Assembly (NCBI GenBank): GCA_902776455.1
Contig: CACYQI010000026.1
Coordinates: 5,686-69,685 of the forward strand
DNA from: an uncultured Bacteroidales bacterium
Lineage (GTDB): Bacteria > Bacteroidota > Bacteroidia > Bacteroidales > Bacteroidaceae
Direction of reading: 5' to 3'
Length of the DNA stretch: 64,000 nucleotides
Shown: one piece after another, positions 3,729 through 4,194 of the stretch
Layout of the letters: each line of letters begins with the position of its first letter
How positions within the stretch are numbered: position 1 is the first letter of the stretch
Made by a program: the position numbers and the translations under genes
The notes under the pieces: generated by a model
Told to the model about the DNA's origin: nothing
The model's input: only the letters and a program-made list of their open reading frames with translations
Databases searched by the model: none

Positions 3729-3750
3729 CCCCTCTCCCATGGGAGAGGGG
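3729..3750. repeat. GC-rich palindrome (B family), perfect 22-mer cccctctcccatgggagagggg
   Basis: The sequence is its own reverse complement. It lies 13 nt after the etfA stop and 27 nt before the DUF559 ATG. Confidence 0.95.
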
Positions 3751-3776
3751 AGAAGGAAGATACCTATTTAGATGAT

Positions 3777-4151
3777 ATGGGGTACGGAATCAAGACAACC
3801 TATCCAGACAGATACTCTCTCCTCAAGAATTTTGCAAAACAAAACCGCAGAGAGATGACATTGGCGGAACAGGTGATGTGGCAATACCTTCGTACTTTGC
3901 AGGGCTTCCATTTCAGACGTCAACATCCCATAGGAGATTACATTGCGGACTTCATCTGTCTGAAAAAGAATTTGGTGATTGAGATTGATGGAGGATACCA
4001 TACTCAGCACGAACAGCAGTTGAACGACGAAGATCGTACTGCAAAACTTGAGCAATTGGGGTATTCTGTCATCCGTTTCTCCAATGAAGCTGTTCTTTAC
4101 GACATACAAAACGTGATGCAAACAATTGAAAGCAAATTATTAACATTATAA
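3777..4151 (+). CDS. DUF559 endonuclease-domain protein (Vsr/restriction-endonuclease-like fold)
   Basis: 124 aa matching the DUF559 pattern: MTLAEQVMWQYLR..FHFRRQHPIGDYIADFICLKKNLVIEIDGGYH..DEDRTAKLEQLGYSVIRFSNEAV. Confidence 0.8.
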   Translation: MGYGIKTTYPDRYSLLKNFAKQNRREMTLAEQVMWQYLRTLQGFHFRRQHPIGDYIADFICLKKNLVIEIDGGYHTQHEQQLNDEDRTAKLEQLGYSVIRFSNEAVLYDIQNVMQTIESKLLTL

Positions 4152-4174
4152 TAAAGTCCTCTGCACCCCTTTCT

Positions 4175-4194
4175 CCCTCTCCCACGGGAGAGGG
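4175..4194. repeat. GC-rich palindrome (B family) ccctctcccacgggagaggg
   Basis: 9-nt arms with a 2-nt centre. It lies 24 nt after the DUF559 stop and 18 nt before the acyl-CoA dehydrogenase ATG. Confidence 0.9.

Follow-up and report, generated by a model that had tools for sequence, protein, structure and literature searches.

A mobile DUF559 nuclease gene cassette bounded by repeats of BoxC/PIT-type architecture at operon junctions of rumen Prevotellaceae

In the current study, a 64,000 nt stretch of rumen Bacteroidales/Prevotellaceae DNA (the window, on which the cassette coordinates are numbered) was found to carry a discrete cassette of 491 nt (nt 3716–4206, + strand), made up of a left terminal inverted repeat (TIR), a gene for a small nuclease of the DUF559 family, and a right TIR. 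It is well supported as a mobile, selfish, single-gene cassette built on an inverted pair of PIT repeats, and its limits are defined by ends common to 35 related cassettes, by empty junctions in relatives, and by a dip in G+C content. An earlier note on this DNA (the original prediction) had offered the gene plus its flanks as a possible selfish cassette, and this is borne out by the discrete TIR ends, the empty sites, the occupation of at least ten sites, and the disagreement between host and cargo. Its further proposal, that the DUF559 protein moves the cassette or the palindrome family in a manner like that of repetitive extragenic palindromes and their associated transposases (REP/RAYT), or like homing, is plausible from the sequence comparisons, at odds even or somewhat short of even. 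Taken as a whole, the best explanation is a mobile PIT-bounded cassette whose nuclease would act on its own repeats and which repair would then spread, a reading given a probability of about 0.5.

A single-gene cassette at operon junctions

The cassette takes up the entire intergenic space between etfA (nt 2694–3716), which lies directly upstream and is itself preceded by etfB, and the acyl-CoA dehydrogenase gene, acd (nt 4212–5972). The G of the etfA stop codon (TAG, nt 3714–3716) is base 1 of the cassette, whose last base is followed 6 nt later by the acd ATG. The open reading frame (ORF) reported earlier between etfA and acd was recovered as a gene of 124 amino acids (aa) that matches PF04480 (nt 3777–4151, + strand), and the two palindromes described on either side of it are also present: a perfect 22-nt palindrome, CCCCTCTCCCATGGGAGAGGGG, at nt 3729–3750, ending 27 nt 5' of the ATG, and a variant, CCCTCTCCCACGGGAGAGGG, at nt 4175–4194, beginning 24 nt 3' of the stop. 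What had been missed is that these palindromes are only the inner parts of longer TIRs, and that the DUF559 ORF is richer in A+T than its surroundings (43% G+C, compared with about 58% in the flanks). No other ORF is found inside the cassette, and none for a DDE, HUH, serine or tyrosine transposase; no methyltransferase gene adjoins the DUF559 gene, and the hairpins of the window cassette have no T-tract 3' of them.

Comparison of 80 etfA–acd loci, obtained by a metagenome scan with an Acd protein alignment, shows that in most relatives only 2–11 nt separate the etfA stop from the acd ATG. Locus L082, with an EtfA 95% identical to that of the window, has the empty junction TAA-aaaaagaa-ATG, and the contig of L086 carries a DUF559 cassette at the same place. 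The search for an empty site proposed in the original prediction was therefore successful, as close relatives retain a junction of 2–11 nt and DUF559 is not universally syntenic there. In L081 and L085 (EtfA 96–97% identical to that of the window), and in the L134-like group, the junction is occupied by another kind of single-ORF cassette, which encodes a PF05635 protein (23S_rRNA_IVP/bAvd-like four-helix bundle, 124–134 aa) and is flanked by inverted repeats of its own, about 45 nt long and composed of tandem 9-mers (e.g. GTTAAAGAA). These cassettes (about nt 1044–1600 in L081 and about nt 1104–1600 in L085, as well as in the L134/L142-type loci) occupy the equivalent of window nt 3717–4211. 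Since DUF559 cassettes are found in some genomes and PF05635 cassettes in others, the junction has been invaded repeatedly by small cassettes bounded by inverted repeats, which suggests that operon junctions of Bacteroidales host a wider class of such elements. Neither a target-site duplication nor a shared target motif was seen at 35 junction pairs or in comparison with the empty sites.

The junction is variable well beyond the cassettes. Several contigs resembling gut Bacteroides (L098–L104, L120, L123, L128, L143, L153 and L154) have a gene for a secreted protein of 213–284 aa at etfA|acd, apparently with MORN-like repeats and a TonB-C-like end when the sequence is read by eye.

The wider family was examined in 80 loci encoding relatives of the DUF559 protein, most of them metagenome-assembled and sampled around DUF559 itself. 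Among these are 35 cassettes of 468–670 nt, all of which start with GCCTCACCCCC, two nucleotides and a hairpin, and end with a hairpin, two nucleotides and GGGGGTGAGGC. Within a cassette, the left end and the reverse-complemented right end have a median identity of 86%, against a mean of 69% (median 77%) between sites. The similarity of the ends reaches 45–52 nt inward in some cassettes, and in L171 the repeats are 52 nt long and 98% identical. At least ten junctions are occupied, including etfA|acd, fabZ|fabG, fabF|fabZ and one that is korA|korB-like, and at all sites the flanking genes are co-directional with DUF559 (p about 1e-3 for about 11 independent lineages). The fit is tight: the upstream stop codon usually lies 0–9 nt from the left end, with the upstream ORF running 20–25 nt into the left repeat at a few sites, and where the downstream gene has a start codon of its own, the ATG is 3–12 nt from the right end.

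The phylogenies of cassette and host are not congruent. DUF559 is present at etfA|acd in many Prevotellaceae species, with protein identities of 54–99%, and the closest relative of the window protein (99% identity) is in the metagenome-assembled genome RUG14526. The Acd protein of L004 is 88–92% identical to those of L007, L008 and L013, but its DUF559 protein is only 57–58% identical to theirs; it is 73% identical to that of the window, yet the Acd of L004 is only 68% identical to the window Acd. The DUF559 proteins cluster mostly by site, with two separate clades at site A, inserted at slightly different points, and with proteins from the two fab junctions intermixed. For most pairs the ratio of nonsynonymous to synonymous substitution rates (dN/dS) is 0.06–0.12, with about 0.07 as a summary figure, indicating strong purifying selection. 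Together with the conserved catalytic residues (see below), this argues that the gene is not in decay and that selection probably keeps its product an active nuclease.

The same repeats also occur as gene-less pairs of 85–165 nt, which are common in the Prevotellaceae loci. One such pair in L001 (nt 5626–5711) matches the repeats of the window cassette at 95–97%; L001 also has a cassette near-identical to that of the window, and synteny between the two breaks 3' of acd. In all of the sequence examined, strict left–right pairs number 37 with DUF559 and 9 without a gene, and there is one chance pairing. An identical DUF559 protein (P0101) is encoded in two contexts, in L171 after etfA (nt 1442–1883) and in L178 after a DUF6266 gene (nt 797–1238). 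These cassettes are 99.8% identical, the outer end of the left repeat is precisely where the homology begins, and in L178 the 15-nt outer box is present twice (AGCCTCACCCCCAAC). This suggests a recent movement, or else an assembly chimera at the repeat.

Architecture of the terminal repeats

The TIRs of the window cassette are about 33 nt each, and consist of a hairpin (CCCTCTCCC/GGGAGAGGG) and, outside it, a G-rich box that is a mirror copy of the purine arm. The left TIR (nt 3716–3750, − strand) is composed of the hairpin CCCCTCTCCC-AT-GGGAGAGGGG, a TT spacer, and the third-strand box GGGGGTGAGGC. Read on the + strand, its outer box (nt 3716–3726) is GCCTCACCCCC, the complement of the G-rich third-strand segment, and its hairpin is the perfect 22-nt palindrome (nt 3729–3750). 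The right TIR (nt 4175–4206, + strand) has the hairpin CCCTCTCCC-AC-GGGAGAGGG (nt 4175–4194), the spacer TC, and the outer box, or third-strand segment, GGGGAGAGGC (nt 4197–4206, + strand). The general plan of the repeat is a pyrimidine arm, a purine arm, a spacer of 2–3 nt and a G-rich mirror box (GGAGAGGGG ... GGGGTGAGG), and by this architecture the terminal repeats are of the BoxC/PIT type, a predicted intrastrand triplex motif.

For that motif a stem of 6–15 nt and a loop of 1–6 nt are expected, and the left repeat has a stem of 10–11 nt and a loop of 0–2 nt, the right repeat a stem of 9 nt and a loop of 2 nt, with homopyrimidine and complementary homopurine arms. A mirror segment, defined as a purine-rich third segment that follows a short loop and matches by G*G:C, A*A:T and T*A:T, is present in the right repeat (GGGAGAGGG-TC(G)-GGGAGAGG) and, on the minus strand, in the left repeat (GGGAGAGGGG-TT(G)-GGGGTGAGG). 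Over all loci, a mirror third strand with at most one mismatch accompanies 211 of 504 hairpin strand views, compared with 15 of 504 random segments, and perfect matches between arm and box number 135 when each element keeps its own box but 52 when boxes are swapped between elements. Arm and box covary, GGGAGGGG being found with GGGGTGGG, GGGGGAAGG with GGATGGGGG, and GGGAGAGAG with GAGAGAGGG.

In Escherichia coli, the BoxC repeat, later termed PIT and TMECO, has the consensus CCCTCTCCC-TGT-GGGAGAGGG-CCG-GGGTGAGGGC, and TMECO is the only one for which single-strand triplex formation has been demonstrated in vitro (PMC4666352). Inverted pairs in E. coli always combine one type A (TTA) and one type B (CCG) element (Holder et al. 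2015, PMC4666352). A similar asymmetry is seen in the spacers of the cassettes, where the left is usually A-rich (often AA) and the reverse-complemented right is GA or GG; in the window the spacers are TT (left) and TC (right), so that the left TIR resembles type A (TT spacer) and the right TIR type B (TCG spacer). According to Holder et al., no transposase, integrase or other mobility function was ever found close to the motifs (PMC4666352). Full-text literature searches on DUF559 and on bacterial intrastrand triplexes returned nothing that joins the two, and a search by the repeat sequence itself gave eukaryotic noise only.

Both TIRs show a weak similarity to the Rfam family RF01762, whalefall-1 (nt 3715–3751, − strand, and nt 4173–4207, + strand; 16.6–16.8 bits against a gathering score of 37). 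The consensus of this metagenome-only motif is a CUCUCC/GGAGAG hairpin followed by AGGGUGAGGAC, and the "RNA" may really be a DNA repeat of the BoxC/PIT type. An Rfam match to Pab91 was below threshold and was dismissed as spurious, and no Rfam intron match was found at the cassette.

In four loci (L041, L042, L053 and L054) an extra hairpin lies between the outer box and the main hairpin at both ends. The left and right copies of it differ by three compensatory changes (CGCGG..CCGCG versus CAAAG..CTTTG), which indicates that each local hairpin is kept intact independently.

Judging by its reading frames, the right end of the element appears to provide a start of translation, or a means of translational coupling, that travels with it. 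An ATG located about 55–70 nt 5' of the right outer box in many elements opens a frame that passes through the repeat (..TTPLSxxxGAGGEA..), and this frame either continues in phase into the host gene downstream or ends at an ATGA that overlaps the host start codon. Examples begin at nt 4291 in L029, 4255 in L030, 3272 in L037, 4348 in L059, 3383 in L011 and 3385 in L019, and span nt 1487–1576 in L007 and nt 1570–1668 in L013. In L029, L030, L037 and L059 the downstream host genes are korB and korC homologues, and in L059 the ATG of the host gene itself has been lost and replaced by Leu. An element-borne ATG leader was also sought upstream of acd in the window and is absent there; only an open frame whose TGA overlaps the acd ATG is present.

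Further copies of the repeat are dispersed over the window. The core CCTCTCCCNNGGGAGAGG occurs five times (nt 3731, 4176, 8822, 30227 and 31655), compared with 0.01 expected from shuffled sequence, and to this extent the dispersed palindrome family of the original prediction stands. The other members assigned to it (nt 8756, 31632, 49986, 50058, 52331–52433 and 56888) have different stems; they are genuine GC-rich hairpins of the same architectural class as the cassette repeats. The element at nt 8756–8791 (+ strand) is a solo PIT-type repeat of another subfamily (CCCCTCCCC-TCT..GGGGAGGGG-TTA-GGGGTGGGGT), to which the solo element at nt 56875–56910 (− strand) also belongs. Three gene-less pairs are found: at nt 8808–8878, where a left-type element with the hairpin of the cassette (CCCTCTCCCGTGGGAGAGGG) is followed by a degenerate right-type element; at nt 31620–31685, just 3' of the malQ stop, where the right half (nt 31654–31685) consists of the cassette hairpin and box; and at nt 49976–50082, between two co-directional minus-strand genes, where the pair is of another subfamily. 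The copy placed inside malQ proved to be two tandem left-type elements (nt 30214–30280, − strand), the first with the hairpin of the cassette, both in frame within the GH77 domain. The MalQ ORF (nt 29059–31614) is 851 aa long, and the two elements encode about ASSQPSPVGEESLSPDLSKGEG.

The DUF559 protein and its association with the repeats

Residues 16–120 of the protein match PF04480 (E 2.5e-34; 117.9 bits against a cutoff of 20.6), and there is a weak match to the related nuclease family MTES_1575. These were the only profile matches, with none to an HUH/Y1 transposase, and the score against the model for Vsr proper (TIGR00632) was only 14.3 bits, the cutoff being 97.85. In an alignment of 69 sequences from several phyla, E69, D71 and H75 never vary, and D58 is retained in at least 90%. 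The AlphaFold model (pLDDT 83) is closest to PDB 3HRL, followed by 3R3P, and then by PvuRts1I and Vsr. PDB 3HRL is itself a DUF559 protein and was also found by sequence search (E 4e-20), and 3R3P is the catalytic domain of I-Bth0305I (Foldseek E 2e-4; phmmer E 0.006). Profile, conservation, fold and dN/dS together describe a Vsr-like PD-(D/E)xK nuclease gene. In some Prevotella genomes (L046 and L048–L052) the frame of the DUF559 homologue runs on for 330–400 codons, possibly through fusion or loss of the stop, and is closely followed by a repeat element and a nadD-like gene.

In vivo data exist for a single DUF559 protein, VsrA of Caulobacter, which provokes an SOS response once a solitary cytosine methyltransferase is deleted, showing such proteins to be capable of damaging DNA in cells (PMC12907096). 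The window protein shares the fold and catalytic core of Vsr and VsrA, the latter having nuclease activity in vivo, but scores far below the cutoff of the Vsr model and has no linked cytosine methyltransferase.

The association with the repeats extends well outside the Prevotellaceae. GC-rich pyrimidine/purine hairpins are concentrated around DUF559: their density within 150 nt of the gene exceeds that in the rest of the loci 24-fold in Prevotellaceae, and 29-fold in 21 loci from other phyla; the intergenic control is crude, as stop-to-stop masking leaves about 6% as intergenic, and the masked ratios are 16–18 fold. The original prediction had asked whether other DUF559 genes also have flanking palindromes, and the same repeat class does adjoin them across phyla. 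Among records of cultured organisms, PIT-class elements are found beside DUF559 in Azospirillum, Picosynechococcus, Pseudanabaena, Neisseria gonorrhoeae (where the gene is the homologue of PDB 3HRL), Sinorhizobium and Deinococcus, and in Sphingomonas a DUF559 gene with such an element is located between sufB and sufC. In neither group is the orientation random, but the pattern differs between them. In Prevotellaceae the boxes face outward, and elsewhere the box of the upstream element usually lies beside the start codon, that element being on the + strand at 15 loci and on the − strand at 4; at 7 loci with elements on both sides the two are convergent.

In E. coli K-12 (L169, nt 1351040–1351760), the DUF559 gene ycjD ends in a degenerate hairpin, and 3' of it are a duplicated remnant of a DUF559 3' end and then an intact TMECO. 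Among 5426 complete E. coli genomes, 3378 have ycjD and 5408 have a BoxC-containing sequence. No clean empty site for ycjD was found in E. coli, strains without the gene having a different island between sapF and fabI, such as the efflux-pump island of UM146. A survey of programmed inversions lists DUF559 coding sequences as 14-fold enriched among its predicted targets, without comment (PMC9881135). This enrichment is consistent with flanking inverted repeats, and the predicted "programmed inversions" at DUF559 genes may merely reflect them.

Proposed mechanism, alternatives and related systems

First recognised in the early 1990s, the BoxC/PIT motifs are present in hundreds of bacterial genomes and are linked to genome instability; they were reportedly described by Bergler in 1992 and by Hoyne and Maher in 2000. 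We know of no explanation of how they arose and spread, nor of an established role for DUF559, a very large pan-bacterial family of small nucleases. Each family is thus familiar, while the nesting of one within the other, the operon-junction cassette and the translated right end appear to be new. The nesting provides a first candidate enzyme for the repeat and, for DUF559, a candidate substrate in the form of a non-B DNA structure.

In the proposed mechanism, DUF559 would be expressed by read-through of the host operon, since the 26 nt between the left hairpin and the ATG leave no room for a promoter. The nuclease would then recognise the structure of its own repeats, either the point at which the two halves of a gene-less pair meet, or a hairpin or triplex formed by single-stranded DNA, and would nick or cut there. 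Repair or copying of the break could spread the cassette and its gene-less derivatives without leaving a target-site duplication. Repeat pairs or junctions already in place might undergo a homing-like gene conversion, or the cassette might follow a hairpin-dependent single-strand path like that of REP/RAYT and IS200/IS605. Polar damage to the operon would be limited by translation through the right repeat, by way of an element-borne ATG or an ATGA stop-start overlap. If this is correct, the cassette is a new type of minimal mobile element that fits into the few bases between operon genes, relies on host transcription, and itself restores translation of the downstream gene; many of the N-terminal extensions annotated on DUF559 proteins and their neighbours would be translated repeats. 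A broader proposal, which is tentative and somewhat less probable than the mechanism itself, is that DUF559 proteins, including YcjD of E. coli and NGO0050 of N. gonorrhoeae, are the missing structure-specific enzymes of BoxC/PIT repeats across Bacteria, and so constitute a second, independently evolved REPtron-like system. The Prevotellaceae form would then have specialised into operon-junction cassettes that supply a translated leader to the downstream host gene.

Several observations weigh against a nuclease-driven cassette. The tie between DUF559 and the repeats is one of physical linkage, which alone would give the observed co-inheritance, and the count in which DUF559 is the only cargo is biased, the loci having been chosen through DUF559. 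No target-site duplication or common target sequence accompanies the insertions at the 35 junction pairs and empty sites, which sets the chemistry apart from that of DDE transposons. Joining of DNA is beyond a PD-(D/E)xK nuclease acting alone, and would have to be supplied by repair or recombination in the host. Clustering of the proteins mostly by site implies that movement is rare, and the one cassette found in identical form in two contexts depends on a 1.2-kb contig that could be an assembly chimera. Lastly, the 38% of complete E. coli genomes that are without ycjD keep BoxC, so the repeats persist without the gene.

One alternative is a model in which the inverted PIT pair is mobilised by a factor acting in trans or by recombination, with DUF559 as mere cargo, perhaps a Vsr-like mismatch nickase or a defence or restriction nuclease. 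The persistence of BoxC without ycjD and the existence of gene-less pairs are in keeping with it, as is VsrA of Caulobacter, which is functionally tied to a cytosine methyltransferase and not to repeats (PMC12907096). At etfA|acd itself, analogous cassettes with inverted repeats carry another cargo, the PF05635 protein, but the repeats of those cassettes are entirely different, and no other cargo was seen between PIT pairs in the sequences examined (loci mostly picked via DUF559). The model does not account for an association of DUF559 with the repeats in at least six phyla, with non-random orientation and close spacing, nor for the strong purifying selection on a gene that comes and goes between strains, and the lack of a methyltransferase gene beside DUF559 also counts against it. 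A cargo-only role is considered rather unlikely. Still older residence, with DUF559 as an ancestral member of the etf operon around which terminator- or REP-like palindromes have gathered, could be argued from the presence of the cassette at etfA|acd in many Prevotellaceae species across 54–99% protein identity. It is scarcely credible, given the empty junctions of close relatives, the two unrelated DUF559 clades with slightly different insertion points at the site, the incongruent host and cargo phylogenies, the identical architecture at nine or more other junctions, and hairpins that have no T-tract 3' of them. An integron cassette with attC sites was also considered and rejected, as there is no integrase, the repeats are on both sides, and no array is present.

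A different kind of explanation places the function of the repeats in RNA. Here the repeats would pair in the operon transcript, as in the intervening sequences (IVS) of 23S rRNA, and cleavage by RNase III would separate the etfBA and acd messages and free that of DUF559, making the cassette primarily an RNA-processing or insulator module. In the minimum-free-energy fold of nt 3700–4225, the left repeat does pair with the right around the ORF (-156.7 kcal/mol, z = -3.8), and the strictly sense orientation, the placement at operon junctions, and the 23S_rRNA_IVP cassettes of relatives, which have inverted repeats of their own at the same junction, are all compatible with this. Left and right loop sequences are often complementary as well. 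Concerted evolution of the loops was tried as proof of left–right pairing and rejected: about half match, but GATT and CAA recur across sites, so the matches are explained by shared ancestry. Mismatches between left and right repeats, G:U-compatible in 23 cases and incompatible in 62, do not favour a G:U-tolerant pairing in the sense RNA, the counts being confounded by shared ancestry and dominated by spacer asymmetry and non-independent lineages. The compensatory changes at sites H and I preserve each local hairpin independently, and the mirror third strand, which would be without a role in a simple RNA stem, covaries with the hairpin; together these point towards a structure in DNA. RNA does not form purine-motif triplexes (PMC4666352), and mobility is left unexplained. 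As the primary function of the cassette, RNA processing is improbable, and it could coexist with either of the DNA-level models, whether the nuclease drives the cassette or is carried by it.

The mobile cassette with a nuclease acting on its own repeats, which remains the preferred reading, has partial counterparts in several known systems. Like the ORF-containing IVS of 23S rRNA (PF05635) and the Correia/NEMIS elements, it is a small ORF or short element with long inverted repeats within a transcription unit; a long stem is predicted in the cassette RNA, and PF05635 cassettes occupy the identical etfA|acd junction in close relatives. Both repeats and cargo differ from those of the IVS, however, the RNA stem is here a prediction only, and the TA target duplications of Correia elements were not seen at the cassette. 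Conventional TIR transposons and miniature inverted-repeat transposable elements also have terminal inverted repeats, but with a target-site duplication and, for the former, a recognised transposase, neither of which is present here. Copies of Rickettsia palindromic elements are tolerated in frame within coding sequences, as are the present repeats in malQ and in the N-terminal leaders of downstream genes. They belong to another sequence family, and we know of no nuclease gene associated with them.

Homing endonuclease genes share the pattern of presence and absence at one conserved site and the incongruence of cargo and host phylogenies, and I-Bth0305I (PDB 3R3P; EDxHD family) has the same catalytic fold. 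In the cassette, there is no intron or intein, the protein (124 aa) has no extra DNA-binding domain, many sites are occupied, and the target would have to be the repeats and not a host gene. The REP/RAYT comparison made in the original prediction holds as an analogy of layout. REPtrons and REPINs, reportedly described by Nunvar in 2010 and by Bertels and Rainey in 2011, likewise have a single- or low-copy nuclease-type gene between inverted copies of a short GC-rich hairpin repeat that is dispersed in the same genome, with many gene-less doublets as well. It fails for the components, as RAYTs are HUH/Y1 transposases of the IS200/IS605 type, whereas the cassette gene encodes a Vsr-like PD-(D/E)xK protein; the repeats are of the BoxC/PIT type and not REP, have a third, mirror segment, and lie in the sense orientation at tight operon junctions. 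From the published BoxC/PIT pairs of E. coli, which are convergent and gene-less, and for which the literature gives no mobility gene, the cassette differs in that its pair is divergent, with the boxes outermost, and encloses a nuclease gene. With the BoxC/PIT repeats in general it shares the same arm-loop-arm-spacer-mirror architecture, and an intergenic, dispersed occurrence in many phyla.

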